Part shown: one piece after another, positions 367 through 63,314 of the stretch
Layout: each line of letters begins with the position of its first letter
How positions within the stretch are numbered: position 1 is the first letter of the stretch
From: a virus
Reading direction: 5' to 3' (one strand)
Length of the DNA: 64,000 nucleotides
Virus record (IMG/VR): IMGVR_UViG_3300045988_141143
Made by a program: the position numbers and the translations under genes
Notes under the pieces: model-generated
What the model saw: only the letters and a program-made list of their open reading frames with translations
Databases searched by the model: none
Told to the model about the DNA's origin: nothing

Positions 367-711
367 ATGAAATCATACATTAAAGATATACTAACCGAAA
401 AGGGCATTACACAAAAAGAACTCGCCCAGCGCCTCGACGTTAGACAAGCGACGATTTCCGCCGTAATCTCGCGGCCATCGTTTCCAACCTTGGAGCGCAT
501 CGCCGCCGCCTTGGATGTAGAGCCGTGGCAGCTCCTCGCCCCTCCTGCAGTTGTGGAGGAGGTGAAGCAAGCCAGGGCGCAGCGCGAAAGCGGTGTAGGT
601 GGTGCCCTGGTTGGTGTCGTGCGTGTCGGCGGTGAGATCTACACAGCCGACACCGTGCAACAGCTCCGCGCCATCGTGGAGAGGCTGGAGAGAGAAGAAG
701 CAAAGAAGTAA
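367..711 (+). CDS. XRE-family HTH transcriptional regulator (paralog 2)
   Basis: HTH 'ITQKELAQRLDVRQATISAVISRPSFPTLERIAAAL' parallels ORF 71..361. GC-rich 3' half. Confidence 0.6.
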   Translation: MKSYIKDILTEKGITQKELAQRLDVRQATISAVISRPSFPTLERIAAALDVEPWQLLAPPAVVEEVKQARAQRESGVGGALVGVVRVGGEIYTADTVQQLRAIVERLEREEAKK

Positions 712-9213: not shown

Positions 9214-10257
9214 TTATTTAGACACCTCACAAGTAAACGTGCCTCTCACTGCCACGTCAGCGTTGGACACCGTGACGTAAGGCTTGCTCGAAGCATTCAC
9301 CGCACTTGATGTACCGTTCCAGTTCGTGGCTACACCGCTGGCATTGTACTTCGTCCATTTGTAGATGTAGTTCGAGGCATGGTTGCTGTCTGCCTTCACC
9401 GCTGCACCATCCTCCACTACCTTGCCGTCTTTCCAGAGTCGGGCGTAAAGCTCCGTCGACTGCGAACCGTTCACTATCTTGTCGCCGGTCAGCGAATACA
9501 CCTCCACCACGTACGGGTCGCTCGCATCGAAGAACGTGATGATAGCGCTGGCCGTATCAGCACCGTCCTTCACCGTACAGCGGAAAGTCTGGAAGTTAAG
9601 CACGTCATTGGCGCTCACGTTCAGAGTGCTCACGCCGCCCGAAGTGCTCACGTTGCCCGAAGCCACGGCGTCCCATGTTCCTGCACTGATATTCAGCACC
9701 TCCCAAGTCATTGATGTCATGGTGGTGTCCTGCACGTTGCCACGGAAGAACTTGGCTATAGCACGCAGCTTATTGCTGTTGTTGGTCGAGTCGAACGTGT
9801 TGCCGTCGGGAGTCTCAATCTGCACCGTCTGAAGCGCACCGCCACTCTTAGCCAGCGAAATGGTCTTGTAGCCGATACACGTTGTCGTAGCCTTAGTTTC
9901 GGGGTCAGTATATTTGCACGACCACTCGATGTTCTTCACGCTGCCGTTCTTGTCGATGTTGCTGGCGAGGTTAAGCTGATACGACTTGCCGCTCACAGGA
10001 GTGGCAGCCACACCATCCAACTTCCACGACCATCCCGTACAAGCCGAGGTCGGAGCCTGGTCTGTAGCACTGCCCGTCACATATACACGGGCTGTTATCA
10101 CGTTTGGTTCACTCGACGAGTAGTTCGGAGTGTACACACCCGTGTCGGGGGTGTAAATCTGAGTCTCGCCCTTAGAGCATTGTGTAAAACACTGAACGGC
10201 CTTGCCGTCATTGAGGTCAACGATAGTAATCTGACCATTAGCTAATACTTTTGCCAT
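9214..10257 (-). CDS. Second tail fibre-like protein (347 aa) sharing the N-terminal anchor motif
   Basis: 'MAKVLANGQITIVDLNDGKA' versus 'MAVLLARGQITIAAIKDGAP' of the 880-aa fibre. Beta-rich, Ig-like composition. Confidence 0.5.
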   Translation of the reverse strand: MAKVLANGQITIVDLNDGKAVQCFTQCSKGETQIYTPDTGVYTPNYSSSEPNVITARVYVTGSATDQAPTSACTGWSWKLDGVAATPVSGKSYQLNLASNIDKNGSVKNIEWSCKYTDPETKATTTCIGYKTISLAKSGGALQTVQIETPDGNTFDSTNNSNKLRAIAKFFRGNVQDTTMTSMTWEVLNISAGTWDAVASGNVSTSGGVSTLNVSANDVLNFQTFRCTVKDGADTASAIITFFDASDPYVVEVYSLTGDKIVNGSQSTELYARLWKDGKVVEDGAAVKADSNHASNYIYKWTKYNASGVATNWNGTSSAVNASSKPYVTVSNADVAVRGTFTCEVSK

Positions 10258-12763: not shown

Positions 12764-13816
12764 TCAGAGTAGAAGTGAACCATTAATATCGATCACTACT
12801 TTAAACGACAAAGCATACATATTGGTGTTAGTGTCATCCTGGATAGTGGTCTCGTCTTCCAAAGTGATGGTGCATGGAATCCAAATGCCGTGCGATAGAA
12901 TCCATGCGTGTTCGCTCATGGCAAACTCGTGCAGATACCAGTCGAGCCAATTCTCGTCGAGTGGGTCAGTAGTGAGATTCCAAGTTTCTTGATCATTCTG
13001 TTTCTTGACCGACGCACGAGAGAAGGAGTTGAACGTCTCCTGCTTTGCCACAATATACGATTCTGTTGTAAGCGCCATCTTACGGCTGTTGGCTTTCGGC
13101 AGACTGACACTCTCAAGTACACCAAACAGATTGATGAAGCGTATGGTGTAACGGTTGCTCGCCTCTGTAGCAGGAAGCGCATAGAGTTGGTGAGTACCGA
13201 TGGTCTGTAGTCCTTCCTGCGTAATCTCCTTAGAGACAGACGTGGGAGGAACCAGGGTCGGACTGTTACTGAGCAGTTGTTCTGTCTCGTATGATGGAGT
13301 ATAAATAAAGGTGTCACCCACAACGACGGGTTGCGGCAATGTGTTCGGCTTTCGGGTAAACGAAACGACTCCCTTGCTGAGTCCAGACAGAAGGCGCACC
13401 ATATCAGAGAAAGCACCCGCTATGCTGCGAAGGTTCGTATTGCCGGTTTCGTCGGGGTTTTGAGGATAAAACACCTCGCCTACATTGGTATGTATCTCAC
13501 CATTGCTATCCATATATTCATCGTAGGCATGGACGTACCAGCTCACGAAAGGATAGGTTGTCGGCTCGGGAGTATATTCGTAGGAGTCGAGTGCCGCACG
13601 GAGAGCTGACGATACATCAAGCGATACATCAGTGCCCTCTTTGGTGACAGGCTCATTGAGTTGTATGACATCATAGCTGCCGTCATTGTCGAACATGACC
13701 TCTACGACGACACGATGAAAAGAAGGTGTATTATCTGGAACTGACGGCGAGATGGTAAAAGTAACCGGGTTGCCAGCAAGGATTGAACCAGATGTAAGTA
13801 AAATATTCTTTGCCAT
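12764..13816 (-). CDS. Hypothetical structural protein (350 aa)
   Basis: Intact ORF inside the structural operon, immediately downstream of the ACP gene. Confidence 0.4.
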   Translation of the reverse strand: MAKNILLTSGSILAGNPVTFTISPSVPDNTPSFHRVVVEVMFDNDGSYDVIQLNEPVTKEGTDVSLDVSSALRAALDSYEYTPEPTTYPFVSWYVHAYDEYMDSNGEIHTNVGEVFYPQNPDETGNTNLRSIAGAFSDMVRLLSGLSKGVVSFTRKPNTLPQPVVVGDTFIYTPSYETEQLLSNSPTLVPPTSVSKEITQEGLQTIGTHQLYALPATEASNRYTIRFINLFGVLESVSLPKANSRKMALTTESYIVAKQETFNSFSRASVKKQNDQETWNLTTDPLDENWLDWYLHEFAMSEHAWILSHGIWIPCTITLEDETTIQDDTNTNMYALSFKVVIDINGSLLL

Positions 13817-13879
13817 ATCTATAGATAAAACAGGAGATGAATGTATGTGCTGAGATTTTTCTTTTGGCTGCGAAAGTCG

Positions 13880-14128
13880 CTAAGACATTTTCTTCTCTAC
13901 GATAGCTGTCACATCAGACACAAGCTGTAAGTCTTTTGCCTCTTCTGGCGAAATCTTGATATGGAACATGGTTTCGGTCTGAAGAACGAGGTCGAGAAAG
14001 TCAATAGACTCAAGAGCAAGATCATCACGCAGGTTAGCGCTGTCGGTCACTTCTGCTGTCGATGCCCAAGGTGTGCGCAGGCCTTCAACGATATTGAACA
14101 CCCGCTGACGTATATCTTCTTTGTTCAT
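13880..14128 (-). CDS. Acyl carrier protein
   Basis: 82 aa, acidic. 'DDLALESIDFLDLV' matches the phosphopantetheine-attachment region (DSL to ESI). Start overlaps the KAS stop (ATGA). Confidence 0.6.
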   Translation of the reverse strand: MNKEDIRQRVFNIVEGLRTPWASTAEVTDSANLRDDLALESIDFLDLVLQTETMFHIKISPEEAKDLQLVSDVTAIVEKKMS

Positions 14129-15339
14129 GATGGTTGATATTTAGAGATGATGAATGATGAGTTGGTGCCTCCGAAGCCAAAGGCATTGCAGAGGATATGG
14201 TGTGCTGAGTACTCGCGTGACTGCATGACGAGATTGAGTTTGGGAAAAGCATTCTCGGCTGTGGTAGCCGCACCGAAGACAGTGTCTGTGTTGAGCATCA
14301 TGGATGCTTGAACGGCCTGCGATACACCAGCCATCCAGCACTCGTGCCCCGTCATGCCCTTGGTGGCTACGATATAAGGGCTCTCGGGGAATACCTTTCC
14401 GATGGCTTCTGCCTCTGCAGCATCGCCCAGCTCTGTACCTGTGGCATGGGCAAGGAGTACATCTATCATTCCTGCATCGAGTCCTGCCGATTCTATGGCC
14501 TTAATCATTGCCACTTCTTCCTGATAAGCATCCGGGGTACAGATGTTGGTGCCGTTGGTGGAGAAGCCGCAGCCGGAAAGTTCTGCCACGGGCGAGACTT
14601 CATAATCCTCGAAACGCAAGCTGTCGGAAGGCTCAAGAATGACACAGGCTGCACCACCCGAAGGAGCAAGACCATTGCGGCCTTTGCCGAAGGGCTGCAC
14701 CTTGTCGGGCGAGAAAACGCCCATGGCATCAAACGACAGCATGGAGAAGGGACCTGTCTCCTGTGCGCCAACGACAATCACCATGTCGGTTTGGCGCGTA
14801 TCAAGAAGCATCTTGGCAAGACCGATGGCATGACCTCCTCCGGCACAAGCCCCGCTGACGGTAAGCGAAAGTCCTTTCAGTCCGTAGATAGAGGCGAGAC
14901 TCATGCTGACGGTGGAATTGAGTGTACGGAACACTGCGCCTGCCCCTAAACGTCGGGTGTCGCGCTGTGTAATGGCAGTTGTCATTGCCTGATAGTTGTC
15001 TCCAGCCGTAGTGTCGTTGCTGACGATGACCGATACATTGTGAGACTGCAAGAACTCGGGAAGAATATTGGCTTCCATCAGAGCCTCGTTGACGGCAGAT
15101 AAGGAATATAGGGTCGGTTCGGAAAGACATTGCCGTTGAGCCCTGGTGAGTTCGGATAGCTTCCAAGGGTTCGGGTCATTTATCTTTCCGCACAGGTCGG
15201 ACTGATAACCTTTCTCGCTACGTGCGGGGTCGTGGTGAAGACCGCACTCTCCATACGCCAGCTTCTGTGCGACGGAAAAGGTATCGTTGCCAAGACAGGA
15301 AACGATACCTGTGCCTGTGATTAATATTTTTCTATCCAT
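14125..15339 (-). CDS. Beta-ketoacyl-ACP synthase (KAS I/II, FabF/FabB-like)
   Basis: Active-site Cys in 'VSGACAGGGHAIG'. His motifs 'LAHATGTELGD' and 'KGMTGHECWMAG'. C-terminal 'FGFGGTNSSFII'. Confidence 0.75.
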   Translation of the reverse strand: MDRKILITGTGIVSCLGNDTFSVAQKLAYGECGLHHDPARSEKGYQSDLCGKINDPNPWKLSELTRAQRQCLSEPTLYSLSAVNEALMEANILPEFLQSHNVSVIVSNDTTAGDNYQAMTTAITQRDTRRLGAGAVFRTLNSTVSMSLASIYGLKGLSLTVSGACAGGGHAIGLAKMLLDTRQTDMVIVVGAQETGPFSMLSFDAMGVFSPDKVQPFGKGRNGLAPSGGAACVILEPSDSLRFEDYEVSPVAELSGCGFSTNGTNICTPDAYQEEVAMIKAIESAGLDAGMIDVLLAHATGTELGDAAEAEAIGKVFPESPYIVATKGMTGHECWMAGVSQAVQASMMLNTDTVFGAATTAENAFPKLNLVMQSREYSAHHILCNAFGFGGTNSSFIISKYQPS

Positions 15340-15368
15340 GATTATGTTTGTTTGATTAAAGAATACTC

Positions 15369-18182
15369 TTACAAAGCATAGACGGTCAGTTCCACCTCTC
15401 CAATGCCTTCCTTAGCCGTGATAGTTGTATTCACCTTGTCGATAAGACATTTCACACCTCCGATGTTCCACCACGTCTTCCAATGGTTAGGTATGTCGGC
15501 TATCTGTGCGACAGAAGCCGAACAGCGGATGATGTACTTCTTGCGGTTAAGCAGAAAATAGGCGTAGGGCAAAATGAAGGTATCAAAAAGACCGCGTGAG
15601 CGTATCTTGGTTATCACGTTGCCTTTGGCATCCACCTCGTCGGGGTCGCAGAGAGAAACATCCTTGTATTCCGGCTTACTGAGCCATGACGGCTCTTTGA
15701 AAGCGCGTATCTTGAGCGAGAAGCGTTCACCTTTGCCTCTGCCTTCCTGCACACCATTGTAGTCGAATACATTGCCCATCATGTCAAGAGAGTCGCAAGC
15801 AAGAGCATACTCGCCTGCTGCCGTGCGCCACTTGGAAGTACCGAAGTGGTCATAGTTATAGTCATAGGGCTCTGTGGTTGCATTCGTACCGCCGCCTCGC
15901 ATCATGGCCAAGGCAAATCCCCATCGTGAATCGTCTTGAAGAGGCGAGTTGCCGTCTTCGGTGTTTGACGGGTCGTAACTCTCGACGAGTTTCAATGACT
16001 GCTGCATATAGAAGTCGCAGAAAGGCGAGGAGATGGTCTGGTTGATGATTTGCTCGACAAACTCATGTTCCATTTCCTCGTCGACATAGGCGCAGAGGAT
16101 GGGCTGTCCTTCCTTGATAACGACACCATAGGTTGTTGTCTTTGAATCATCATAGTACTTTGCCGTATGAGAGCCGTAAGCAGCCTCTATCTCCTTGAAA
16201 TAGTTGACATCGTTGAACGGCACGGGAGTGAAGTCGATGGTGATGTCGTGGATGAAGTCTTCATTCTCCTCGCTGCAATCACCATACTCCACACCCTTGT
16301 ACTGGCCTACCTCGAAAAGTACAGGTTTGAGGTCGGCTGTAGTAGTGGCGTCGCCATTCACCTTCACGCGATAGGCATTGCCCGTCTTGCGGTCGATGTA
16401 GCATCTTTTATCTCCAGAACTTAAATTATGAAAGAAGTCAACGTAATCTCGATCGTAAACCGTTTCGTTGTCTCCACTTCCCGGTTCGGGATAGTCGATA
16501 TAGTCGTAATCGGTGGCATAGCCCATATTTTTATTCTTGCGGCTGTCCTTGACGTTCTGCTGCTGATCCTTGGCATCGCTCTCTTCGGAGTATCGCATAC
16601 GTACACCCGTTATCTTCTCGCTGACGGGAATGATAGAATGAATGTCTGCGCGGAACGTGCGTGCTGGCTGTCCACTCTCGCGAAGCACGTCACGGATGAG
16701 GTAGGCCGTGACTTTCTTTTGCTCATAGTCGTAGGAGAACTTGATGCCGAAGGCGCTTTCCAAGGATGAGATAATCGTGCTGACACTCTCATCGGGGAAG
16801 TTGTCGCTGTTGGCCACCATATAGAGCACGTTGGCCTGCACGTTGAACTTAGAGATTTGCGCCTCGATGCTGATACCAGTCACCTTGCCGCCCTCTTTTG
16901 TCGTCTCTCCCACCTGTATGTGTTCGGAAGTCCCTTCGTTAGTGGTGAGGGTGAGCTCGTTGACCGTCTTGTCCTCTGCCTTTACGATGTTGATTTTTCC
17001 ACCACAACCGCGCGACTCCAACCAGGAGTTGATATGATCTTGCTTCTTGAAATATCCTTCCTTAATCTCGCCTTCCTTCTTTTTCTTGGCGATGACTTCG
17101 GGGTCGTCCTTCTTGTAGTATGTTCCGTGATGTGGATGCTCTTTGGTATCGTAGGCGCAAACGGTGGTGAAGAAACAGAGGTGCTTCATATCCTCTATCT
17201 GCATCAGTGCCGACTTGTCGAAGGTGACACCCAAGTGAGCAAACAGGCAGTCGAGAAAATAGAGTACATAGAAACAAATGCCCGACTGCGGACGGCGTGC
17301 GTCCAACACCCAATAGGGATAAAGATCTTCGTTAGTCCACTTGCAATCCTTTGTGCTGATAATGTCGCTCGATGTGGTGCCATCGTCTGCCAGTCCGTGG
17401 TGCTTGTAGCAGATACGGGCATTGCAATAGGCTGCGGGACGGCCTGCGCCATCAGTCTCGCCATAGGCTGCCGATGTGTTGATATAGTCGCCATTCTTGG
17501 CGATGGCGGGCTCGTTGACTGAATTTCCGTTGGGGTAGGATCGTGACGACTTTCTCTTGGCATCGGCCTTCATGTGTAAAGGATAAAGGATATTGGTGGT
17601 GTACTCCTGGCACGATGCAGGATAGGAGAAGCCAAGAGCCTGCGGTTCGAGCACTTTACTTACACTTACGTGCTCAGCATGAATGGTTCGGGTGACAGTC
17701 TCGTCATCCTTATGCTTTCCTCCCTCCACAAATACACTGACATTTACAACAGGGTCGCTCTCGATGTCTACCATTACATTGCCTATCTTCTCGCCGATGA
17801 TCAGTTCATCCTTGATGGGGATGTCACGACAGTTGAGCGATCCGATGAGGTCGCTGAAACTCTGTCTGCCTGCATTAATACTCATAGAGAGCGAGTCTTT
17901 TATCTCTTCAGCATCCTGCATGACGAGCGTACCGTTGCGGAAGGGCAGTCCGTCGGCATGAATGCGCGTAGGCAAATGCTCCATGTTGACAGCACGAAAC
18001 GATGCCCGCACGTCATCGATGTTCTTTACCAGCCATCGGTTGCCGTCGAGCGGAATGGAAAACGGATAGGCGAACATCTCGTTATCATTGAACACAGGGT
18101 TTTGGTCCTCTATGTCGATAGAGAAATCATCGGGCAGCGACACAGGGCGGTCGTTGATAAGTATGGTGAGATGTGAGTTCAT
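15369..18182 (-). CDS. Large virion/baseplate protein (937 aa)
   Basis: Intact 2.8-kb ORF upstream of KAS. No recognised motif. Coupled (ATGA overlap) to ORF 18179..18847. Confidence 0.4.
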   Translation of the reverse strand: MNSHLTILINDRPVSLPDDFSIDIEDQNPVFNDNEMFAYPFSIPLDGNRWLVKNIDDVRASFRAVNMEHLPTRIHADGLPFRNGTLVMQDAEEIKDSLSMSINAGRQSFSDLIGSLNCRDIPIKDELIIGEKIGNVMVDIESDPVVNVSVFVEGGKHKDDETVTRTIHAEHVSVSKVLEPQALGFSYPASCQEYTTNILYPLHMKADAKRKSSRSYPNGNSVNEPAIAKNGDYINTSAAYGETDGAGRPAAYCNARICYKHHGLADDGTTSSDIISTKDCKWTNEDLYPYWVLDARRPQSGICFYVLYFLDCLFAHLGVTFDKSALMQIEDMKHLCFFTTVCAYDTKEHPHHGTYYKKDDPEVIAKKKKEGEIKEGYFKKQDHINSWLESRGCGGKINIVKAEDKTVNELTLTTNEGTSEHIQVGETTKEGGKVTGISIEAQISKFNVQANVLYMVANSDNFPDESVSTIISSLESAFGIKFSYDYEQKKVTAYLIRDVLRESGQPARTFRADIHSIIPVSEKITGVRMRYSEESDAKDQQQNVKDSRKNKNMGYATDYDYIDYPEPGSGDNETVYDRDYVDFFHNLSSGDKRCYIDRKTGNAYRVKVNGDATTTADLKPVLFEVGQYKGVEYGDCSEENEDFIHDITIDFTPVPFNDVNYFKEIEAAYGSHTAKYYDDSKTTTYGVVIKEGQPILCAYVDEEMEHEFVEQIINQTISSPFCDFYMQQSLKLVESYDPSNTEDGNSPLQDDSRWGFALAMMRGGGTNATTEPYDYNYDHFGTSKWRTAAGEYALACDSLDMMGNVFDYNGVQEGRGKGERFSLKIRAFKEPSWLSKPEYKDVSLCDPDEVDAKGNVITKIRSRGLFDTFILPYAYFLLNRKKYIIRCSASVAQIADIPNHWKTWWNIGGVKCLIDKVNTTITAKEGIGEVELTVYAL

Positions 18183-18847
18183 TGTTTCTTGATATTTACT
18201 TGAGCGTTGTCGTATATAGAGATAAACTGACGGGTGAAGGAGTTGACGACGGCATTACCGAAAGCGTAGACAGCTCTGTGGCCATGGTCGGTGAGTGTGC
18301 CTGCCGTGATGTTGACCACCGACATGTCATAACACTCGGCAGAGGCATTGGTGGTCAGTCGGGACTGGTTGCGTGCCACGGCGTGACCTTCCTTGACGGT
18401 GGCCCGTGAGAAGTCGCGCAACTCTACATGGCAGTCGGGATTCATAACCAGGGCAGAGGCGATGTTGTGCAGCACGACACGGGCGTTGCCCAGGATATAG
18501 GCCGTGTGGGCATGATAGAGGTGGATGGTCTCTGTGCTGTCGCCGATGAGCACATTGCCCGTAGGCGAGTCCTCGTTGTAGAAGATGCCGGCAGCATTTA
18601 TCTCACTCTTATAGTCAGGATAGAAGTCCCGAAAAGCTGCCATGACCTGCTGTGGCACCTCGGTTATCATGCCGTGCCAATACTTGTGCCAGGCCGCGCA
18701 CATCTGCTGTATGCTCTCCGTGCCACGGAAGGCGAGTTGCGACTCCTGGCAGTTGCCGCTCTGGGCAAGAATGGCGATACACAATGCCTTAAACTTTTCG
18801 GACTTCTCCATATTCTGACTCTTCTCTATTATCGAATTTCCAGTCAT
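18179..18847 (-). CDS. Hypothetical phage protein (222 aa)
   Basis: Intact ORF. Its stop overlaps the 937-aa gene start. Confidence 0.4.
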   Translation of the reverse strand: MTGNSIIEKSQNMEKSEKFKALCIAILAQSGNCQESQLAFRGTESIQQMCAAWHKYWHGMITEVPQQVMAAFRDFYPDYKSEINAAGIFYNEDSPTGNVLIGDSTETIHLYHAHTAYILGNARVVLHNIASALVMNPDCHVELRDFSRATVKEGHAVARNQSRLTTNASAECYDMSVVNITAGTLTDHGHRAVYAFGNAVVNSFTRQFISIYDNAQVNIKKQ

Positions 18848-18884: not shown

Positions 18885-19961
18885 TTAGACTCCCGCTTCG
18901 GCGATGGTCTTTGTAAGGATGGCCTCGTAGCCAGTGAGTTCGTCTTCGGTTACGATGTCGGCATACTCCTGGCGCAAACGGTCGATACGCTCCTTCAGTC
19001 CCTTAACCCTTGCCTTGGTACTTGGCTTGTCCTTGCGGATAATATACTTGATGATGGCATCAGCTTCGGCCTTGTGCTTGGCTGCCTTGTCGCGTGCGGC
19101 TTTCACCTCGGGGCGGTCGGCTGCGATTTTCTCTGCTATGCTGACAGCAAAGCGAGGATCACGCTCTTGGGCTTTCTCATAGAAGGGCTTGAGCTGAGTA
19201 CGCAGTTCCTGTGGCGACAAACTGAAAGTCTTTTCCACATAAGAGATAAATTCAGGATCGCCGTTGCGCTGATTCAATCGGAGATAGACTTCACCCATTT
19301 CACGGTCCACTGCCATGTAGATGTCGGGCAGGATGTGGCTCTCTATCTCTGTCGCACGGGTGGCGAGCAGCGCTATCTCGGCTTCAGTGTAGAGGATGCC
19401 CTTGTTCTGCTGTTGCGATTTCTCGTTGGCTTCTGCCATTGTCTTGGCTTGCTCGGCCTTGCTCGCCATTTCGTTGCGGAGGTCGCGCACGGTATTGACG
19501 CGCTGTTGAAGGGCGGGACTGAGGAAGGGACGTATCTGTGCGAGGTTGGGCATGGTGGCGGCGATGCTCTCGCCGTTGGGGTTGGCCACGATGCCGCCAT
19601 AGGTGAGTAGCTGTACGGCTACGTTGGGCTTCACCTCGGGGAAGAGCGACTGGCGGGCTTCGTCGAGGGCTTTCTGCTTCTGCTGTTCGTTGTATCGTGC
19701 CTGTTCCTCCTTGGTGGGTCTGCCCACGTGGCGCTTGGCTTCGGCAGCCTCGGGGATGGGGATAATCTGCAGGCTGGTGATCAACTGACGCACACGGCGG
19801 TGGTAGTCGCGAAAACGATGCGAGTCGCGCACGAAAGCCTGTGCGCTGGGCACGCTTTCGAGCAGTGTCAGTCCCTGCTCGAAGGCTTCTTTCTGTTCGG
19901 CAGTCAGCATTCGGGTGTTGAGTGCCGGCGTGAGTATCTGAATGATTTGCTCTTTGTTCAT
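18885..19961 (-). CDS. Hypothetical phage protein (358 aa)
   Basis: Intact ORF; helical, Lys/Glu-rich. Confidence 0.4.
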   Translation of the reverse strand: MNKEQIIQILTPALNTRMLTAEQKEAFEQGLTLLESVPSAQAFVRDSHRFRDYHRRVRQLITSLQIIPIPEAAEAKRHVGRPTKEEQARYNEQQKQKALDEARQSLFPEVKPNVAVQLLTYGGIVANPNGESIAATMPNLAQIRPFLSPALQQRVNTVRDLRNEMASKAEQAKTMAEANEKSQQQNKGILYTEAEIALLATRATEIESHILPDIYMAVDREMGEVYLRLNQRNGDPEFISYVEKTFSLSPQELRTQLKPFYEKAQERDPRFAVSIAEKIAADRPEVKAARDKAAKHKAEADAIIKYIIRKDKPSTKARVKGLKERIDRLRQEYADIVTEDELTGYEAILTKTIAEAGV

Positions 19962-19991
19962 ATTGTTGTGTCTTTTATTGTTGTCGGGGTT

Positions 19992-21101
19992 TTAGAACAT
20001 GAGTGGTGTGACGAATATCTTGCCGCCCTCCTGGTTATTCTCGTAGCTGCCGGATTTGTCTGCAGCGGATGATGAGGAAGCGGAGGACGTGGTGGAAGTG
20101 GAGGAGGAAGCGTTGCCTGCGGCGGCTTCCTGAGCCTGCTTCTCGTCCTTGAGGAGGCGATAGACGGAATCGCGGAGCGAGATGGACTCGTTGTGCGCCA
20201 GCAGACGGGTAGCCTTGTCGAAGGCGATGACGGTGGTTCGCTCCACGAGGTAGGCGGTCATCAGTCGGCGCACCTTGCGGAGGAGTTTGTCGCGGTCGTC
20301 AGCGTGCTGAAGACGGTCGATGAGCTCGTCGCCGAATACGTCGGCTATGTATTCGTCCTGCACGTAGCGGAGGTCGGGCAGCAAACGGATGAACTTGTCG
20401 CGGTTGTCGTAAATGTCGAGGTACTGCTGAAGGATGCTGCACGTAGGGATGAGGAGGTCGTGGTGCAGGTAGTAGTACTTACTCTCCTGCCACAACAGCA
20501 CTATTTCCTCGATAGCTGCGAGGCGCTCGGTACTTTCGTCCTGTGGTATGTCGGATTTTCCGTCGTCAGGTACTTCTGTACTTTCGCCCTTTGGTACTTC
20601 GGTACTTGCGCTGCCGTCTTTCGGGGCGGCTGTTTCGGCTGGCGTGTTGATGCTGACTGCCCAGTTTTCGAGAAGTATGAGGAGGTTGTTGAGTGACACC
20701 ATGGCCTCCTTTTTATATCCCGCAACTCCCTTGTCGAGGAGTTTCTCTGTAGCGGGGTCGTAGTCGGTAGAGGAGGCGATGTTGACGCCTGCGCCGTTAA
20801 CCGAAAGGATTTGCTGGTAGGCGTATCGCGCCATGGCATCGTTGACCACCATACGCTGTGCGAGGACGAGGAGGACGCTCCATGGCTTCATGACATAGGT
20901 GCCGTCGGTCATCTGCTGATAGAAGCCGTCGCCGCCCAGGGTGGTATAGTATTCGCAAAGCCGTGTGTAGAGCGGCTTGCCCAATTTGTCCTGCAGGAAG
21001 TCCTTCTCGCTGTTGTCGAGCACGCCCTGCAGGTTGGCTATCTCGTCCACGGCATTGCTGGGCAGGATAAGCCGAAGTTCTTGATTGGTGGAAAGTATCA
21101 T
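19992..21101 (-). CDS. Hypothetical phage protein (369 aa) with acidic internal repeat
   Basis: 'STEVPKGESTEVPDDGKSD', encoded by a tandem ~24-nt DNA repeat near 20548-20600. Confidence 0.4.
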   Translation of the reverse strand: MILSTNQELRLILPSNAVDEIANLQGVLDNSEKDFLQDKLGKPLYTRLCEYYTTLGGDGFYQQMTDGTYVMKPWSVLLVLAQRMVVNDAMARYAYQQILSVNGAGVNIASSTDYDPATEKLLDKGVAGYKKEAMVSLNNLLILLENWAVSINTPAETAAPKDGSASTEVPKGESTEVPDDGKSDIPQDESTERLAAIEEIVLLWQESKYYYLHHDLLIPTCSILQQYLDIYDNRDKFIRLLPDLRYVQDEYIADVFGDELIDRLQHADDRDKLLRKVRRLMTAYLVERTTVIAFDKATRLLAHNESISLRDSVYRLLKDEKQAQEAAAGNASSSTSTTSSASSSSAADKSGSYENNQEGGKIFVTPLMF

Positions 21102-21173
21102 GATGTGTTGTGCTGTTATGTGCTGAGTGAAAAAAATGTTGTTGTCGGGACGGAAGTCAGGGAGGGGGGAGGG

Positions 21174-22967
21174 TTACTCCTGTTCCTGCTTCTTGACGCC
21201 TGTCTTCGAGTTGTCGAGGGTGGTGAGCACCTCACGGTCTATCTGCCATTCGAGGTGTGTGTCCCATTCATTGACATCGTCGATTACCTCCAAGGCGCGG
21301 AGCATGAGCTGCTGCAATGGGGCAAACTGTATCTGCTTGACGAGGAAACGCTCACGGAGGTCGGTGCCGCCCGATGAGGTTGCGTCGCCAGGGGTGTTGC
21401 CGATGAGCTTGGAGTCGAGACCCATGGCGAAGAAGATGATGCTCGTAATCTCCTGCAGCTCGGTCTTCTCGGCTTGCGCTTGCGAGTTGGCCTTGCTCTC
21501 TATCTCCACAATCTCCCATGCCTTGTGCTCCTTGCCGTCGGCGCCGGTGAACACGGCAGAGATGAGCGCCTGACCTGCATTGTCGGGATTGGAGAGCCAC
21601 GTGTTGATGTCGCTGAACACTTCCTGCTGAAGCTGCGCCATGGTCTTGGTCTTCTTGTCGCCCTGCTGGGTGTAGAGGTTCTTGAGATATTCCTGGTGAA
21701 TGTAGATGACGCGACCGATGATGTTGGAGTTGCGCTTACGGGTGAGTCGGTCGTCGACAATGGTGAAGGCATACTCGTAGATGCTTCCGGCAAAGATGGA
21801 ATGCCAGAGGGCATCGGCATAGTAGGGACCGCCATAGTCGCGTGGCGACATGATGAAGCGGGTGGGGCGGTCCTTGCGGCTTACCCGCTGCTGACGGGCA
21901 CGGCGCACGGCTGCCTGGAGGTCTTTCACTGCCGACACGGTGGGAAGATAGGGCACGGCGGCGATGCTCTTGTCGAGGTCGGCGAACTGGGCGGTGCGGT
22001 CTTGCGTGGGGTCGAGCCACTGGTTCGACACGTAGGCATAATTGATGCGATAGTTGGTGTCCTGTCGCTCCAGTCGGGTGGTGAAGATGCTGCGGTGTTT
22101 CAGTCCTACGACCTTGGGGGTCCACTGGCTGGTGGGTACCGGCTTGCCATCGTCGGAGAGTTGCCGCTGGTTGAGTTGCAGCTCGACGAAGCACTGCGAC
22201 ATGAGCGACATGTCGCCCGCCATGTTGAGGAAGGTCTGCATCAGGTCGTTGTCCTTCATGAATTTCTGCACCTCGCGGTTGGTCTGTTCCCACTTGGCGA
22301 GGGCATCCTTCAGTGCTTTCATCTCATCGCTGTCCTTTGGCTGGCCTTCGGTCTGCTGACTGACGGAATGCAGAGGGTCGTCGGGGTCGCCGCTGACGCC
22401 GTTCTGTTGTTGTGCCTGACGTTCTGCTGCCTCCTGTGCCTTGAGGTCGGCTATCTGTCCGCGGAGCAGTGTGCCAGCCGATGCGTAGGGGATGTATTTC
22501 TCGGTGATGTTGCCGCCTACGTACTGGGTGTAGTGGTATTTGGGCGAGGGTCCGTGGCCTACGAGTATCTTCTTGATGAAGTCGACGCCGGCAGCGGTGA
22601 AGGGCGACATCCGTGAGAGAATCCAGACGAGGTTGGGCAGTCGGTTGCCCACGCCCCATTCCATGTAGCCCAGTCCGGGTGTTCCCACGCCGTTGGGCTT
22701 GGCCTTGTTCTCGCCGCCGCTGGAGGCGAAGATGGTGGAAATCTGTCGTCGTGCTCCCGATGAGGTAGTCGAGCTGCCCTGCGCTGTCATGCCGGCTGTC
22801 TCGAAGAGCATGGAGCGGACGTAATCGTTCCATGAGAAGACTTGTGCGCCGCTGTTGGGATTGATGAAAGCAGAGGGCGACACGGCCACATATCCATCGC
22901 GCTTCAGCTCCTCACTACGATCTTGGAACTGCTGTAAGTTGGTAACTCTGTTCTTGTTGCGTGACAT
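21174..22967 (-). CDS. Large hypothetical structural protein (597 aa)
   Basis: Intact ORF preceded by a duplicated promoter element. No motif identified. Confidence 0.35.
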   Translation of the reverse strand: MSRNKNRVTNLQQFQDRSEELKRDGYVAVSPSAFINPNSGAQVFSWNDYVRSMLFETAGMTAQGSSTTSSGARRQISTIFASSGGENKAKPNGVGTPGLGYMEWGVGNRLPNLVWILSRMSPFTAAGVDFIKKILVGHGPSPKYHYTQYVGGNITEKYIPYASAGTLLRGQIADLKAQEAAERQAQQQNGVSGDPDDPLHSVSQQTEGQPKDSDEMKALKDALAKWEQTNREVQKFMKDNDLMQTFLNMAGDMSLMSQCFVELQLNQRQLSDDGKPVPTSQWTPKVVGLKHRSIFTTRLERQDTNYRINYAYVSNQWLDPTQDRTAQFADLDKSIAAVPYLPTVSAVKDLQAAVRRARQQRVSRKDRPTRFIMSPRDYGGPYYADALWHSIFAGSIYEYAFTIVDDRLTRKRNSNIIGRVIYIHQEYLKNLYTQQGDKKTKTMAQLQQEVFSDINTWLSNPDNAGQALISAVFTGADGKEHKAWEIVEIESKANSQAQAEKTELQEITSIIFFAMGLDSKLIGNTPGDATSSGGTDLRERFLVKQIQFAPLQQLMLRALEVIDDVNEWDTHLEWQIDREVLTTLDNSKTGVKKQEQE

Positions 22968-23007
22968 ATTCTGTTATCCTGTTTTTAGGGGTTGATGTAT
23001 GTTGTTG

Positions 23008-23326: not shown

Positions 23327-24145
23327 TTATCGTTTGATATTCCACATGTGCTCTGCCGGACCAACGAGCACGTCGATGTTTGCGCCCTGCTTCAGGGCCA
23401 CCGTCTCCACCCATTTAAGTTGAATAAACTGCTGTGGGTTAAGATTCATCTCGTTCATATACGCCTTGTCTGCCACAGCCTTTTGGCGTTCAGCCTTCTC
23501 GCGTGCCAACTGCACCTCATATTCACGTTCCTGCGTCTGCTTGGCCTGTACCATCTTTGCCGTGCGGTTCATTTCGGCAAGCTGTTCCTTGTTTGGGGTT
23601 GCCTTGCCGATGATAACGTCCTTGATGATGACGGGCATCGGCTTGTGCTTTGAGAGGGCAGCCACGTAATCCTGCATCTGCTTCAGAATCTTCTTGTCGA
23701 TGGTGCTCAATACCTGTCGGTTAGACATCAAATCGAATGGACTGTACTGCGAGATATGGTCTCTGATAAGATTGCAGAAATAGTTGTAGAGGTTGGTGTC
23801 AAACCAGTCGCGTCCATAGTTCTGCAACAGTATGGGAGACTTGCCTTGCTCCACCTGAGTGACTATGACAGAATGGAAGTCGAGTGGCGTGTTATCGTCG
23901 GAGAAGATGTCGTCAAGAACAACCTCGTGGCGTACAGGCACAATCTTGAATGTTTCAGAATGAGTACTCAGGGCACACCATGTCAAGCCACTCTGAACTG
24001 GGTCGTTGTCAACACCTCCGTGTCCGAAGAACCATGGTTTCTTTACCAACACGGTTTCCTCGTCAGCATCGGGCGACACAAAACAGCACGAGGATAACAT
24101 CACTACTGCGATAAGCGCAAAAAGAATTGAAAATAATTTTTTCAT
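23327..24145 (-). CDS. SPFH/band-7-like lipoprotein
   Basis: Signal peptide plus lipobox 'MKKLFSILFALIAVVMLSSC' (start chosen at 24145). C-terminal 'QLAREKAERQKAVADKAYMNEMNL' resembles SPFH/prohibitin repeats. Confidence 0.45.
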   Translation of the reverse strand: MKKLFSILFALIAVVMLSSCCFVSPDADEETVLVKKPWFFGHGGVDNDPVQSGLTWCALSTHSETFKIVPVRHEVVLDDIFSDDNTPLDFHSVIVTQVEQGKSPILLQNYGRDWFDTNLYNYFCNLIRDHISQYSPFDLMSNRQVLSTIDKKILKQMQDYVAALSKHKPMPVIIKDVIIGKATPNKEQLAEMNRTAKMVQAKQTQEREYEVQLAREKAERQKAVADKAYMNEMNLNPQQFIQLKWVETVALKQGANIDVLVGPAEHMWNIKR

Positions 24146-24287
24146 AATTGTTTTTTGTTTATATTGATTCATTAAAATCCTTATATATGACAATCGTACA
24201 TTGTCAATAGAGTGTCTGTAGGTATTCCAGTTCTTTCCAATTCTTTCAAAACTGGAAAGAACGGGAATGGCTATACACCCGCTGCCT

Positions 24288-24839
24288 TTACGACTCAATC
24301 TCGGGAGGGTTGCCACCAGGTTTCTGCTCGCCGCCTCCAGTGGTGCCGGAATCGCCCGTGCCGGGAGTTGCTGGAGCATCCGTTGCAGCATCGCCCACTC
24401 GCTTGAACGAGCCGTGCTGTGCGAAGGCGGCGGTGAACTTCTTGGAGAAGTCGATGGCTACGCCTGCGGTGAGGTCCTTTGTGGTGAGGTCGGCGGCGGT
24501 AATCTCTCGGTTCACGTCAACGTCCTCGCCTGCTGCCTTACGTGCTTCGAGCTTCGCCTTGAGCTGGCTCTGAGTGAGCGAACCGCTGACGGTAGGACGT
24601 ACCGTCATGCCCTCGGCAGACACCTGTACCTTGGTGCCCAGTGCCAACAGAAGCGGCAGCTTTTTCTCCAACTGCGTCATCACGGCCATTACGTCCGCTG
24701 CGCCTACTGTAGAGTCCTGCGCCATGTAGTCGCAAAATTCAGGGAATGACATCTGCTGCAAGTCAACGATCTGTGCGCTTGCAACCTTTTCTTTCGTGAA
24801 ATTATTCACACGAACTGCAATTCTTGTTTTGATTGCCAT
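24288..24839 (-). CDS. HU-family (Bacteroidales HU-like) DNA-binding protein
   Basis: 'MAIKTRIAVRVNNFT...VDLQQMSFPEFCDYMAQDSTVGAADVMAVMTQLEKKL' plus Gly-rich tail 'GGGEQKPGG'. Confidence 0.55.
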   Translation of the reverse strand: MAIKTRIAVRVNNFTKEKVASAQIVDLQQMSFPEFCDYMAQDSTVGAADVMAVMTQLEKKLPLLLALGTKVQVSAEGMTVRPTVSGSLTQSQLKAKLEARKAAGEDVDVNREITAADLTTKDLTAGVAIDFSKKFTAAFAQHGSFKRVGDAATDAPATPGTGDSGTTGGGEQKPGGNPPEIES

Positions 24840-30530: not shown

Positions 30531-31439
30531 TTATCGCATGGCTTCCTCAAGAGTTCTAATATAAGGTATGGCTTCGTTGCGCACAATGTCGAGAAAAAGT
30601 TGTGCTGACCGCTTCATCGGCACGTCCTTCATCCAGTGGGCATTGCTCATCAGGTCGTGCTCAAGCCCAGCGATGGGACGGACGGTAAGGGTGGGGTGAC
30701 TCTTCAGATAAAGTTTAGGCATGAAAGTAACACAATGGGTTTCTTCCACGATGGCAAGGTCTTCGTTGGGGTCGCTCACAATACATTTTACATTCAGTTT
30801 CATCAAGTCGTATCTCAGATATTGCTGGAAGGTATTGAACACCCTTTCGCCTACATCGGGCATAATCACGTTGTGCCTTAACAAATCCTCGTATGACACC
30901 TTTTCCAGTCGGGCCAAAGGATGGGTGTCCCGCATCATCGCATAGATACGGAAAGGAATACAGGGTTCTGACTTGATACCCTCATTCTTGTAGGCAGAGT
31001 TCAGAGTGAAGGCGAGGTCAATGGAGTGGCTTCTCAACAGGTGGTTCAAGTTCGCTGCCTTGGCAAACTCGGCGTTGATTCTCACATTCGGGTATCGCTC
31101 CATGAAGATAAGTGCAGCCATCCGAATGTAAGGTGCGATAAAAGAGCCTACACCTATCCTCAGCTCGCCCACAAGGCAGTTGTTGAGCGCATTGATTTGC
31201 TCCTTGCAGTCATCCGTCTGCTTCAGTATCTCCTTGGCGCGAGGCAAAAGCGCCTCGCCGCTCTCGGTGAGCATGATGCTGTGCGAGGTGCGGATAAGCA
31301 GCTTGCACCTCAGTTCATCCTCAAGAGCCTTGATGTGCTGACTGATGGCGGACTGAGTGACACAACAGCGCGTGGCTGCAATGCTGAAAGATAAAGTTTC
31401 AGCGACATATACAAATGAGCGCAAATGACGAAGTTCCAT
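30531..31439 (-). CDS. LysR-family transcriptional regulator
   Basis: N-terminal wHTH 'MELRHLRSFVYVAETLSFSIAATRCCVTQSAISQHIKALEDEL' followed by a substrate-binding-like domain. AT-rich flanks. Confidence 0.75.
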   Translation of the reverse strand: MELRHLRSFVYVAETLSFSIAATRCCVTQSAISQHIKALEDELRCKLLIRTSHSIMLTESGEALLPRAKEILKQTDDCKEQINALNNCLVGELRIGVGSFIAPYIRMAALIFMERYPNVRINAEFAKAANLNHLLRSHSIDLAFTLNSAYKNEGIKSEPCIPFRIYAMMRDTHPLARLEKVSYEDLLRHNVIMPDVGERVFNTFQQYLRYDLMKLNVKCIVSDPNEDLAIVEETHCVTFMPKLYLKSHPTLTVRPIAGLEHDLMSNAHWMKDVPMKRSAQLFLDIVRNEAIPYIRTLEEAMR

Positions 31440-40194: not shown

Positions 40195-41280
40195 TTAGCC
40201 ATAGATTTCCTGCATATCCTCCCTCGAAAGTGTTACCTTGGCTCTTTTGCAAAACATGAAAAAAGTATTTGCTCTTACTCTTTCGTATTTTCCGAATGAC
40301 TTCCAAGGAGCCACAAAGTCTGATTCACGGTGTCCGTGGTTGGCATCAAAGGGACGGAAACGAGAAACTCGCTTCCACATATCATAGCCTTCATTCGGAT
40401 CGATACTGTATAAAGACATTCCGCATTTAACCCAGTCATCATAGTTTTCCATAATGTCAACAGCATTCTGCTCTACCTTACGTACAAGGACACGCGCTTT
40501 GCGCAAGATGATGTCGGGTGTATCATTTTCCCAATCACCAGTATAACCCGACCTCTGACCTGACGACGTATTTTCGTAATGCGTAGCAACTTTAGTTACA
40601 GGAATTAGCGATGGCAACACAGCCATATCTTCCAGTCCCTTATACGGCACCACATTTTCATTGATATATATATGTTCGGGATCGTCCCAGGAGGCGAAGC
40701 GCACACGACCGATGTTGCTGCAAGCCTTGTCGAGCATGATGCCGATAGCGGCATATTCTTTGAGCAGAGCTTTGAACTGGTCTTTGTGTCTTTCGGGATA
40801 GGCCAGACGAACCAGACCGAAATAACCAGTACCAGAGCAAGACCGCATCATTAATCCTATCTCAGGACGAAAACGGGCAAGCTTAAATATACTTTCAAAA
40901 TCAGTTATCTGAAGATTGTCCTGCAGATCAATGTCGATGGCGAGCCAGCCCGTGTGCTGTTTCAGGTGGCTCTCTCGTCGGCTCACCATGACACGCTGCC
41001 CTGGATGCGTCAGACTGTCATCTTCATAGAGAGCGAACAAGCCGCTAAGAGTGGCACCAGGTAACATCTTCTTGGTATTGATGTACTCAGGCATTTTCTT
41101 TGCCTTGCTGCCAAATTCCTGACGCATAGCACGAAGACGCTGCACATACGGCTTCCATCTATCCGTAAGACAGAACTCGCGGATGGTCATCTGCTGAATG
41201 CACTCACCCGTCTCGCGGTCTACGAAACGGCCATAAGCATCTTGGGCAGACTCATAAATAGAGCAAACTTCGTCAAACAT
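40195..41280 (-). CDS. Prim-Pol (AEP-superfamily) primase-like replication protein with PriCT-like C-terminus
   Basis: AEP motif I 'LAIDIDL', motif II-like 'SCSGTGYFGLV', 'RVRFAS'. C-terminal 'YDDWVKCGMSLYS'. Confidence 0.5.
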   Translation of the reverse strand: MFDEVCSIYESAQDAYGRFVDRETGECIQQMTIREFCLTDRWKPYVQRLRAMRQEFGSKAKKMPEYINTKKMLPGATLSGLFALYEDDSLTHPGQRVMVSRRESHLKQHTGWLAIDIDLQDNLQITDFESIFKLARFRPEIGLMMRSCSGTGYFGLVRLAYPERHKDQFKALLKEYAAIGIMLDKACSNIGRVRFASWDDPEHIYINENVVPYKGLEDMAVLPSLIPVTKVATHYENTSSGQRSGYTGDWENDTPDIILRKARVLVRKVEQNAVDIMENYDDWVKCGMSLYSIDPNEGYDMWKRVSRFRPFDANHGHRESDFVAPWKSFGKYERVRANTFFMFCKRAKVTLSREDMQEIYG

Positions 41281-48100: not shown

Positions 48101-48151
48101 TGTAGAGGCATTGGCCGTGATTACTACTTTTGCTAATTTTTGTGTTGCCAT
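42200..48151 (-). CDS. Tail tape measure protein (1983 aa)
   Basis: Long coiled coils. Core 'TSIEELNNLAYAGAKLGVTTQNLAGFVRAADQVNVALKEDLGDEALTALAKITEVMGL' resembles the TP901-type TMP domain. Hydrophobic segments and Gly-rich C-terminus. Confidence 0.65.
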   Translation of the reverse strand: MATQKLAKVVITANASTAKKVLEEIDNLVQKYTADIQKMTAAGQANTAECKRAESTLKALSQVQRDNIEDTKRLSEVVQDLTNTKLRDLRRAMGSGKSALAKLTGSDADLKKAEQIRSEMKQVGDQMRLIEGQYVKIADGLNNVKNQSDQWLDKAIKQQRDLVGSLQKSDASYQQNLATLKQLEAEEDRRKGKMGVAEAHQTVTSQNASASDLRRAKSTLTEARDNTPTGNSADIAKYNSELQEIEKRLEAVSGKTQKASMSWKQMKQVLAEPNKASGEDIKRTMEVIQQKIQQLPAGSKYVADLRRQYSMLEQTLKGTRMSQSALNDILARSKQGKASLDELRRAYKQLEEELNQINTKSKEFADKQKSMKELKKNIDEATGAANKHGSAWQTALKNLTAYVGLFAMFNQLKTYFMDLFRLNMKYSEQLTNIRKVALSTTDEVANLSKELAKIDTRTSIEELNNLAYAGAKLGVTTQNLAGFVRAADQVNVALKEDLGDEALTALAKITEVMGLADKYGVEQAMLKTGSAIFRLASTSTATSGKIVDFSNRMLALGEQAALTTPDILALGAAVDSMALEPEVAATAFGKLVVELRKGTSPIEKSLGIASGSLKKMIESGRGMDAILTIFRRMGETKNLFALDGLFKDLGSDGARLVKTMVTMAAKNGMLTKAVKESNKAFNEGSAVTVEYNMQQETAAAYMERANNLLEKQFVSSSAASGPIRDIAKAWFEVVKELTTSMSFMTEVRVALALLFASIKMLLSILPTLITMISMAGLAGGFAKLLTYVQGLEGGMLSLGAVVAKTKAAFNGLSFAKQAGIMGGLIGLLGILVVKLAEYSSSLNGLSAGQRVLNEVQEEGKRKAMEEQESLKRLHNVMHDTSASMNLRLEAMNKLNGAIPNLNAKINTETGVVKENTKAWEKNFQRLQDYYELEGARSKLAELGREKVDAILDLQKKEDAYANTHVNAPNGRYIQTSGGAMMPGQAQGAIGQAGQRAAAKRERDKAQSRLDEINAQEEALRKKFGAKLDVGDGMAVGQKVYGGNGGGGNTTTPEDDARNNISEFITKIKNFYKRQMTATVEDLSKKGVEKELQEQAVNDIQIQMDAALAAAQQSIVFGNKTWDKFKKSIDKYRKEKDDEFGQSQSRMLEDAILNTNVAQLRSDLLKQMPKIKKGQVVGYKSDERDRAYLDRMWLNASSKENDSSNVIQKRIEQRRKELLEHDYTGIVQQNSFLGLINSRFADVSLETLNKDRADVIKVLEKARTQMAALFETNGEKQKLLQFLFGKDYMQMPSVFLALMGETEQNVKLFYHKLIQYVDEYTAAQKKEYDEAKKISDFLWKNNKRNLDQQAKLRKMQQESSLFGKRTNLLSNLGLADLTADPEVELLKLKMQLAEDYYAFCLKNSRNKQLVDEADKARQEAELAYANQMATAMKNRLSQMQQLVQPIETFGAEVGKAFAMMESDVSSAQESIKNALKSMIESWANMALNDVNTQMWKAINDAGAKQGKKNAQPGIDAARANANANATTIDMDWRNLGTAENPMWVRVVGGQYIDANGNNLANTEPPAAWKKRHPNGTIHDYNKETYGIDTASQAGTAVAGAITGGTTLSDAVAGIGGSLVGDLMNTNFTLGGSSKKTGDDKEKAKQLKKERKHQKELSKEVKKGAKDREKETHQGVKNITDITDAGNKEQSKSTEIAQNAILDMTQTAMTTNLAAKEQNNQDVANSDAARTDQEVTFSIAGAMAKCFEFLGPIAGPIAAAGVMATLMGLLQWALNSAFSSSSKKSSSVSKNTKLVSGMLTYDSGNVQDLKPFVADNGDIYWATEDDGRQKTGVQMITTPRATTINGQPSLVAENGPEIVIGRETTHAMMMNNPALLKALVNYDSNYSGRRAARRAFDNGNVGELASAMGDAAAGFTAENGNLLLGAPAANNVIANNTASQAALMQAVKTLLDRLNEPIYAKIDMYGRGNLYDSMTKANQFMKGKG

Positions 48152-63306: not shown

Positions 63307-63314
63307 CGTGCCGA

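Follow-up and report, generated by a model that had tools for sequence, protein, structure and literature searches.

A virus-associated ketosynthase and carrier protein pair among the late genes of uncultured ~100 kb phages, a candidate host-dependent lipid cassette

The IMG/VR virus record IMGVR_UViG_3300045988_141143 supplies a stretch of 64,000 nucleotides, the whole of which is referred to here as the window, and positions 13880 to 15339 of it are occupied by two adjacent genes, one for a beta-ketoacyl-ACP synthase (KAS, a ketosynthase or KS) and one for an acyl carrier protein (ACP). The window is phage-like, encoding a 1983-aa tape-measure-like protein, a GH108 endolysin, a holin, a tail protein, and a tail-fiber protein, and a sequence-only reading of it had described the two genes as a minimal extension unit for lipids or polyketides set within the tail operon. 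The genes are the following.

13880..14128, minus strand: ACP gene, 82 aa, acyl carrier protein, its start overlapping the KAS stop as ATGA
14125..15339, minus strand: KAS gene, 404 aa, beta-ketoacyl-ACP synthase of the KAS I/II fold, in a virus-associated clade

The ketosynthase and its carrier protein

As judged from its sequence and conservation, the KS is a complete condensing enzyme that is maintained by selection. Its two Pfam domains, ketoacyl-synt N (PF00109; 7.7e-26, 91.7 bits) and ketoacyl-synt C (PF02801; 5.8e-20, 71.9 bits), both exceed the cut-off of 20.8, and the Cys-His-His triad proposed from the motifs SGACAGG (residues 162-168), HATGT (298-302), and GHECW (331-335) is in place, with Cys165, His298, Lys327, and His332 falling on the catalytic positions in an alignment to the FabB structures 4xox and 7pps. 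Realignment thus retained the active-site Cys and His. The signature motifs of the protein are ACAGGGHA, RxGLAPSGG, and GHECWMAGVSQ. Its best PDB match is FabB 4xox (169 bits) and its best NCBIfam model is FabB PRK07967 (191 bits), but it lies far below all NCBIfam equivalog cut-offs, including those for FabB (NF005935, 191.2 bits against 630) and FabF (TIGR03150, 180.2 bits against 493.75). The original label of a FabF/FabB-type enzyme consequently holds as far as a KAS I/II type is meant, but the equivalog cut-offs are missed and the nearest kin are KSs of the Bacteroidota flexirubin/aryl-polyene type. With FabB (KAS I) and FabF (KAS II), the phage KS shares the fold, the length, the Cys-His-His(+Lys) set, and the C-terminal GFGG loop; it differs from them in being only ~28-30% identical, in carrying GHECWM and RxGLAPSGG where they carry GH(S/L)LGAAG and RDGF, and in having a private ACP in place of fabG-acpP-fabF neighbors.

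In terms of model scores, the ACP is strongly diverged. The PP-binding domain (PF00550) is a marginal match at 22.8 bits (1.1e-4) against a cut-off of 20.8, the phage ACP family phrog_5934 matches at 5.5e-8, and the NCBIfam ACP models match at 1e-12, each under its own cut-off. With the KS and ACP domains all above their Pfam cut-offs, the profile search on which the two assignments could have failed leaves them standing. The ATGA stop/start overlap and the carrier-site motif that had been noted are both present, the latter as DDLALESIDFLDL at residues 35-47, where the carrier serine is Ser41 within LESIDFLDL. The residue preceding this serine is Glu, whereas canonical ACPs have Asp there, and ESID(F/M)LD is invariant in the ACPs of the phage family, the Leu before it being replaced by Phe in one copy. 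The Glu-Ser-Ile-Asp carrier motif is common to the window family and the ACP of locus L063 (positions 378-635 of that locus), and Asp-Ser is retained by the viral ACPs of L398, L396, and L066 and by the ACPs of cellular clusters.

Conservation, variable presence, and kin of the pair

A scan of viral contigs for the KAS returned 59 loci, mostly on contigs of 85-110 kb, and in 57 of these the gene order g597-g369-g358-g222-g937-KAS-ACP-g350-fiber is kept while KS identity drops to 58%. At least 60 related viral contigs of ~85-110 kb, from many samples, hold the pair at the same junction, between g937 and g350 (genes for proteins of 937 and 350 aa). Across 56 KS sequences of the family, neither the four catalytic residues nor the motif GHECWMAGVSQ varies, and median pairwise dN/dS is 0.12 for KAS, 0.17 for ACP, 0.12 for g350, and 0.05 for g937. 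By these measures, KAS and ACP are under purifying selection and probably functional. A recent host-derived insertion that related phages do not share had been named as a finding that would overturn the case, and the conservation of the pair in related phages is the opposite of this.

INPHARED contains no cultured relative of the group to which these contigs belong. Megablast of the region and tblastn with KAS, g937, and the 1226-aa replicative protein yielded no relatives in it, except that a fecal fragment of 6.8 kb encodes a KS with 40% identity; FabB/F-like matches at ~25% in that database lie mostly in records resembling host contamination. The element is absent from PLSDB, where the matches are limited to FabB and to KSs of cellular clusters, and literature searches on KS/ACP pairs of phages, on phages of Segatella, and on aryl-polyene genes in phages turned up no description of this family.

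Presence of the pair varies between clades that share the surrounding genes. A scan with g937 found 80 loci, 60 with the pair (g937 identity of at least 69%) and 20 without it (g937 identity of 45-53%), and the latter constitute a sister clade that retains g369-g358-g222-g937-g350-fiber, so the pair is not simply co-inherited with the structural genes. In 16 of the 20, g350 begins ~10-90 nt after g937 according to tblastn coordinates, and in the other 4 the junction is filled by ORFs of 372 aa and 611 aa (L213 8671-11800, also L214, L216, and L217). The g937|g350 junction takes insertions repeatedly. No KS was found elsewhere in the sister-clade loci, whose genomes are covered in part.

Beyond the family, similarity falls off steeply in an exhaustive search of protein representatives, leaving a handful of standalone KSs that are 37-45% identical, among them the following.

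P0127 (L398), 42% identity: ACP-then-KS pair in a distantly related phage, where it is part of the replication module and has a C5 methylase on one side and a primase on the other
P0125 (L066), 40% identity: ketoreductase (KR)-KS-ACP cassette beside a lysin gene, on a viral-looking contig of 55 kb
P0122, 44% identity: ACP-KS pair on a short contig
P0128, 45% identity: ACP-KS pair on a short contig

The phage carrying P0127 shares with that of the window a 1220-aa replicative protein (36% identity), a primase (47%), and a PAPS reductase (57%), and ACPs accompany the viral KSs in L063, L066, L396, and L398. In a neighbor-joining tree with 200 bootstraps, in which deep nodes are weak, the KS family of the window is monophyletic (100%), and its sister group (88%) is a clade that includes the other virus-associated ACP-KS pairs (96.5%). 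Cellular KSs of the aryl-polyene (APE) type form a separate clade (85.5%) to which the phage KSs stand in a sister-group relation without being nested in it, and the phage, viral-pair, and cellular APE-type KSs are all set apart from proteobacterial FabB (99.5-100%). The phylogeny that had been suggested, against FabB and cluster-type KSs, thus places the enzyme in a virus-associated clade next to, but not among, the Bacteroidota cluster KSs. Given this tree and the varied contexts, the KS/ACP lineage is virus-associated and resides in different genome modules of different phages, and it appears from its sequence relationships to circulate among several phage groups.

Because the sister clade has the same structural genes without the pair, its link to the tail is best regarded as incidental, and on this comparison the pair is mobile cargo. 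The position inside the tail operon is no evidence of a tail function, and the tail or virion role that position had seemed to imply is not supported, in view of the 20 of 80 g937 loci that lack the pair and the related pairs lying outside structural modules.

Among GTDB species representatives, no close copy of the KS exists, the highest identity being 42%. The nearest cellular KSs all belong to Bacteroidota (Chryseobacterium, Flavobacterium, Dyadobacter, Chitinophagaceae, Alistipes, Prevotella metagenome-assembled genomes, and B. fragilis) and are set in a conserved cluster of KR-KS-ACP, an ApeP-like dehydratase (DH), and a 4HBT thioesterase, to which an ApeI-like DH, MMPL, LolA, and an FAD oxidoreductase are often added. 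A plasmid cluster of Persicobacter, the KS of which is 40% identical to the phage KS, encodes an aromatic amino-acid ammonia-lyase, FabG, KS, ACP, a lipid-A-type acyltransferase, a methyltransferase, a thioesterase, a second ACP, a KS/chain-length-factor (CLF) pair, and LolA, and by this gene content it is of the flexirubin/aryl-polyene type. Clusters of this type make outer-membrane-anchored polyene lipids. In E. coli, APE lipids shield cells from oxidative stress and favor the formation of biofilms (PMC8253772).

The flexirubin/APE KR-KS-ACP core (Persicobacter psychrovividus pPP6, WP_338399314/WP_338399313; B. fragilis, L346; metagenomic, L064) is the nearest cellular relative of the phage pair, at 35-42% identity. 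The two share the KS-then-ACP order and the motifs GHECWM and RxGL(A/V)PSGG, which are absent from FabB/FabF, and the KR-KS-ACP form also occurs on another apparent phage, that of L066. They differ in that the phage KS carries ACAGGGHA and WMAGVSQ where the cellular APE KSs carry ACASGSHA and WMAGASE, and in that the phage ACP has ESID where the cellular ACPs have DSL.

The late operon and the wider phage genome

The junctions and genes immediately around the pair are as follows.

13817..13879, minus strand: downstream junction, a 63-nt spacer from the ACP stop to the start of g350, with no convincing terminator
15340..15368, minus strand: upstream junction, a 29-nt spacer from the g937 stop to the KAS start, with no promoter-like or terminator-like element
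12764..13816, minus strand: g350, right flank, a conserved all-beta protein of 350 aa, found only in this phage group
15369..18182, minus strand: g937, left flank, a conserved 937-aa late protein
18179-18847, minus strand: g222, upstream of g937, with no Pfam, PHROG, or PDB-sequence relatives

Motif scans for a sigma-70-like promoter, the Bacteroidota -7 motif, and a terminator found none at either cassette junction of the window, and TAnnTTTG is absent within 150 nt upstream of KAS in 55 of 55 loci. As neither junction has a terminator or promoter signal, the KS/ACP pair is probably transcribed together with the late genes by read-through, in agreement with the tight same-strand packing that had been pointed out. 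In most relatives (L005, L007, L011, and others), the interval from the g937 stop to the KAS start contains a GC hairpin, GCCCT-GTA-AGGGC, and after it an AT-rich spacer, ~70-100 nt ahead of KAS (locus position ~9900-10000). In the subclade of the window, this interval is just the 29-nt spacer, without the hairpin. Regulation of the cassette may vary by subclade.

The claim that the pair is flanked by virion-type genes at gaps of less than 70 nt is right about the gaps (29 and 63 nt) but finds no backing in family matches or structural models as to virion identity. Profile searches gave no significant PDB-sequence match for g937, g350, or g222, and none belongs to a Pfam or PHROG family. The AlphaFold2 model of g937 is unusable (pLDDT, the predicted local distance difference test score, of 27.5), and that of g350 is all-beta (pLDDT 61) and matches generic FN3/Ig-like sandwiches only. 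It is the position of these genes between the endolysin and recognizable fiber genes, together with their high conservation, that suggests a virion nature for all three. Directly downstream of g350 lie the tail-fiber gene g771 and the tail gene g347 (phrog_3267, 2e-59), and relatives carry in this region the diversity-generating retroelement accessory protein bAvd (L062 21014-21224) and fiber genes of the Phage_tail_C type (L060 16233-17051), the fiber region being hypervariable among otherwise syntenic genomes. The most conserved gene of the block is g937, which is also found in clades without KS/ACP. By comparison, g222 evolves far faster than the rest, with 24-31% identity across the clades with and without KAS against 43-75% for g369, g358, g937, and g350. 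On visual inspection, the C-terminal half of g222 has a repeat-like or beta-helical look; a left-handed beta-helix acyltransferase was suspected from this, and neither Hexapep nor any other match was found in Pfam or by PDB profile search.

Further genes of the window encode DNA methylases, a primase, ThyX, guanylate kinase, and PAPS reductase. The rest of the genome was read from contig IMGVR_UViG_3300045988_151591 (100,631 bp, 97-99% identical to the window), and the Pfam scan of 57 window ORFs and 52 further ORFs covered all but ~780 bp of the 100.6 kb genome. No phosphopantetheinyl transferase (PPTase), acyltransferase, ketoreductase, dehydratase, enoyl reductase (ER), thioesterase, or acyl-ACP ligase was detected in these 57 and 52 ORFs. 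The impression that the window holds no other fatty-acid or polyketide gene is thus borne out for its 57 ORFs, the check for a PPTase elsewhere in the phage was negative in the 52 ORFs of the remaining genome, and the description of a minimal two-component unit applies to the phage as a whole. The gene set of the flexirubin/APE clusters, present around the cellular relatives, is likewise missing from the phage, Pfam detecting no ammonia-lyase, KS/CLF pair, ApeI/ApeP dehydratase, or LolA/MMPL export in either the window or the remaining genome. Since no partner enzymes were detected in the phage, the pair would have to rely on those of the host.

Outside the window, the genome encodes ParA, an NAD-dependent ligase, the Pol III beta clamp, helix-turn-helix (HTH) regulators, and YopX. 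Pfam detects no integrase in the genome. The ParA-type ATPase (AAA_31, 1e-34) is at L295 918-1790 on the 100,631-bp contig, and CI-like HTH repressors are encoded, one at window positions 367-711 (plus strand). Because ParA and CI-like repressors are combined with the lack of a Pfam-detectable integrase, this may be a phage-plasmid. A full-length LysR-type regulator (30531-31439, minus strand; HTH_1 2e-20, LysR_substrate 2e-28) sits in the late region between putative head genes and the endolysin and looks like further cargo. An SPFH/Band_7 membrane-microdomain scaffold gene (23327-24391, minus strand) lies ~8 kb upstream of the KS, and the unrelated KR-KS-ACP phage contig L066 has a Band_7 gene (15496-16281) ~4 kb from its cassette; SPFH/Band_7 was rejected as a conserved partner of the cassette, as it occurs only in the closest subclade of the window (L001, L003, L004, and L043).

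GC content is 0.56-0.58, with positive GC skew, over g358, g369, and g597 (window 19000-23000) against 0.48 for the window. A BT4734_N/PriCT_2 primase-like gene (40195-41280, minus strand) lies directly downstream of the gene for the 1983-aa tape-measure-like protein (42200-48151, minus strand), so that replication-type and structural-type genes are interleaved. As a whole, the order of the genes is unusual, with the tape measure preceding the putative head genes. The 414-aa C5 DNA methylase (62104-63348, minus strand) is 80-89% identical on many viral contigs (e.g., 111107, 120470, and 143054) whose g937 is only ~46% identical, a pattern of identities that suggests modular exchange between the two clades.

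A proposed host-dependent cassette and its alternatives

Morons are cargo genes between the conserved late or tail genes of tailed phages, such as lom and bor of lambda, and the classical ones often bring their own promoter and terminator. The pair resembles them in being variable between two conserved late genes, in being dispensable to relatives with the same structural genes, and in lying at a junction that another lineage fills with other ORFs; it differs from classical morons in that no promoter or terminator was detected in the window and in being an enzymatic cassette of two genes that an entire clade has kept. Variable presence between conserved flanks, combined with homology to cellular metabolic enzymes and the absence of the rest of their pathway from the phage, corresponds to what defines morons and auxiliary metabolic genes (AMGs). 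Predicted AMGs in the literature include the fabG-acpP-fabF sets of Rhodobacteraceae prophages (PMC8224337) and an ACP that Alteromonas phage R22Y carries by itself (PMC11705849). Like the pair, these fatty acid synthesis (FAS) genes are carrier or condensing genes without the remaining pathway, and they have been read as modifiers of host metabolism. The statement that no role was known to have been described for a KS/ACP pair in a phage tail module is accordingly outdated in part, although the prophage sets belong to another lineage and another location: they keep the host operon order fabG-acpP-fabF and housekeeping names and reside in predicted prophages, whereas the window pair has KS-then-ACP order and lies in a late operon on many ~100 kb viral contigs. 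Unlike the published sets, it also represents a long-diverged virus-specific lineage with kin among the KSs of specialized-lipid clusters. FAS-type AMGs of phages and late-operon morons are thus known as kinds, and what is new is a long-diverged, virus-specific lineage of KS and private ACP, related to flexirubin/APE enzymes, that takes several arrangements across phage groups and is retained throughout a clade of uncultured ~100 kb phages that has no INPHARED or PLSDB relative.

The reading to which we incline, with a confidence not far above even, is that the pair is a host-dependent accessory cassette of the moron/AMG type that would perform chain extension for fatty-acyl or polyene lipids of the host envelope, rather than a component of the tail. 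The genes would be transcribed by read-through with the late genes, apo-ACP would be converted to holo-ACP by host AcpS, and host FabD would load the phage ACP with malonate. Cys165 of the KS would then accept an acyl (or aryl-polyenoyl) thioester, and decarboxylative Claisen condensation with malonyl-ACP would give a 3-oxoacyl-ACP on the phage carrier, to be processed by the KR, DH, and ER of the host FAS II or APE-type pathway. The phage would thereby control an extension step, increasing or diverting the flow into envelope fatty-acyl or polyene lipids of the infected (or carrier-state) cell.

One alternative is that the pair, with recruited host enzymes, makes a specialized metabolite (a polyene, beta-keto acid, alkyl-resorcinol-like compound, or signal) instead of bulk lipid, and we regard this as a minority possibility. 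It would fit with the nearest cellular kin being specialized flexirubin/aryl-polyene clusters rather than housekeeping FAS, with the private ACP and its divergent ESID motif, with the KR added in a second phage lineage, and with the long persistence of a virus-specific clade, yet the phage has no starter-unit enzyme (ammonia-lyase/ligase), CLF, DH, thioesterase, or exporter, a matching host pathway is only supposed, and the KS scores best with FabB models, as expected for ordinary acyl elongation. Such a product, diffusible or membrane-bound, might conceivably serve competition, superinfection exclusion, or communication, a use to which we likewise give a low probability. It is improbable, on the other hand, that an acyl chain from the KS/ACP is placed on g937, g350, or a fiber and aids the tail in engaging or penetrating the outer membrane. 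The fixed place of the pair between conserved late genes and directly upstream of the tail-fiber genes in every genome that carries KAS, its apparent co-transcription with the late genes, and the unusual divergence of g222 between clades with and without KAS would all agree with lipidation of the tail. However, g937, g350, and the fibers persist in the sister clade without the pair, related viral KS/ACP pairs lie in a replication module or beside a lysin gene, the genome has no acyltransferase of any Pfam family, and a lone KS could not finish a fatty acid, nor does anything link the ACP to a protein acceptor.

Noncatalytic interference is another explanation that we consider quite unlikely. 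Here, the ACP or KS would be a decoy that titrates host AcpS, FabD, or acyltransferases, or would moonlight, to stop or re-time host lipid synthesis, and the strong divergence of the ACP (under all NCBIfam ACP cut-offs, with its Glu-Ser motif) and the absence of partner enzymes from the phage could be taken to point in this direction. A pure decoy would, however, need neither the four catalytic KS residues, the GFGG loop, nor the ACP serine, all invariant under purifying selection, and the KS and ACP are always kept together. The slightly elevated GC content of KAS (0.53 against a window mean of 0.48) could hint at recent insertion from a host, at host DNA binned by mistake, or at a chimeric assembly, but at least 60 viral contigs, independent of one another and drawn from many samples, show the same junction and order, with KS identities as low as 58%, no cellular copy exceeds 42% identity, and the KS forms its own clade, so that this explanation can be considered refuted and has a negligible probability.

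Several points weigh against the host-dependent lipid cassette that we favor. Its product, primer substrate, and host partners are all deduced from sequence relationships, and the host, probably Prevotella or Segatella, is named from database labels only, some copies of the family being labeled Prevotella sp. or Candidatus Segatella. Divergent partner enzymes invisible to Pfam may exist among the many unannotated ORFs, and the Glu-Ser motif may alter recognition of the ACP by host AcpS. The phage KS is ~40% identical to the cellular cluster KSs and not nested among them, so its substrate may have changed. In addition, the strict retention of a single position in the late operon across the clade carrying KAS would also fit a late or virion-linked role.

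A more far-reaching version of lipid modification, which we put forward tentatively and with a fairly low probability, is that the virus-specific KS and ACP make a phage-specified lipid that is new to the host, a polyene or a beta-keto/hydroxy-acyl product built on the private ESID-type ACP with host KR and DH, for the Bacteroidales outer membrane or for a late or virion protein. If so, the pair would be a module of a specialized-lipid pathway rather than a housekeeping fatty-acid boost, and such a lipid in the outer membrane could alter how infected or carrier cells expose receptors, withstand oxidative stress, or resist superinfection.

To our knowledge, few phages carry genes that act on lipid synthesis, and hardly any such gene has been characterized. 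The cassette described here is maintained by a widely sampled phage clade, as reflected in the 59 and 80 viral-contig loci and in hundreds of protein clusters from public metagenomes. The sister clades with and without KAS constitute a natural experiment on the function of the cassette. If the pair is active, these phages would reprogram a step of envelope-lipid synthesis in their probable Prevotella/Segatella host, with possible effects on the display of phage receptors, tolerance of oxidative stress, and biofilm behavior.

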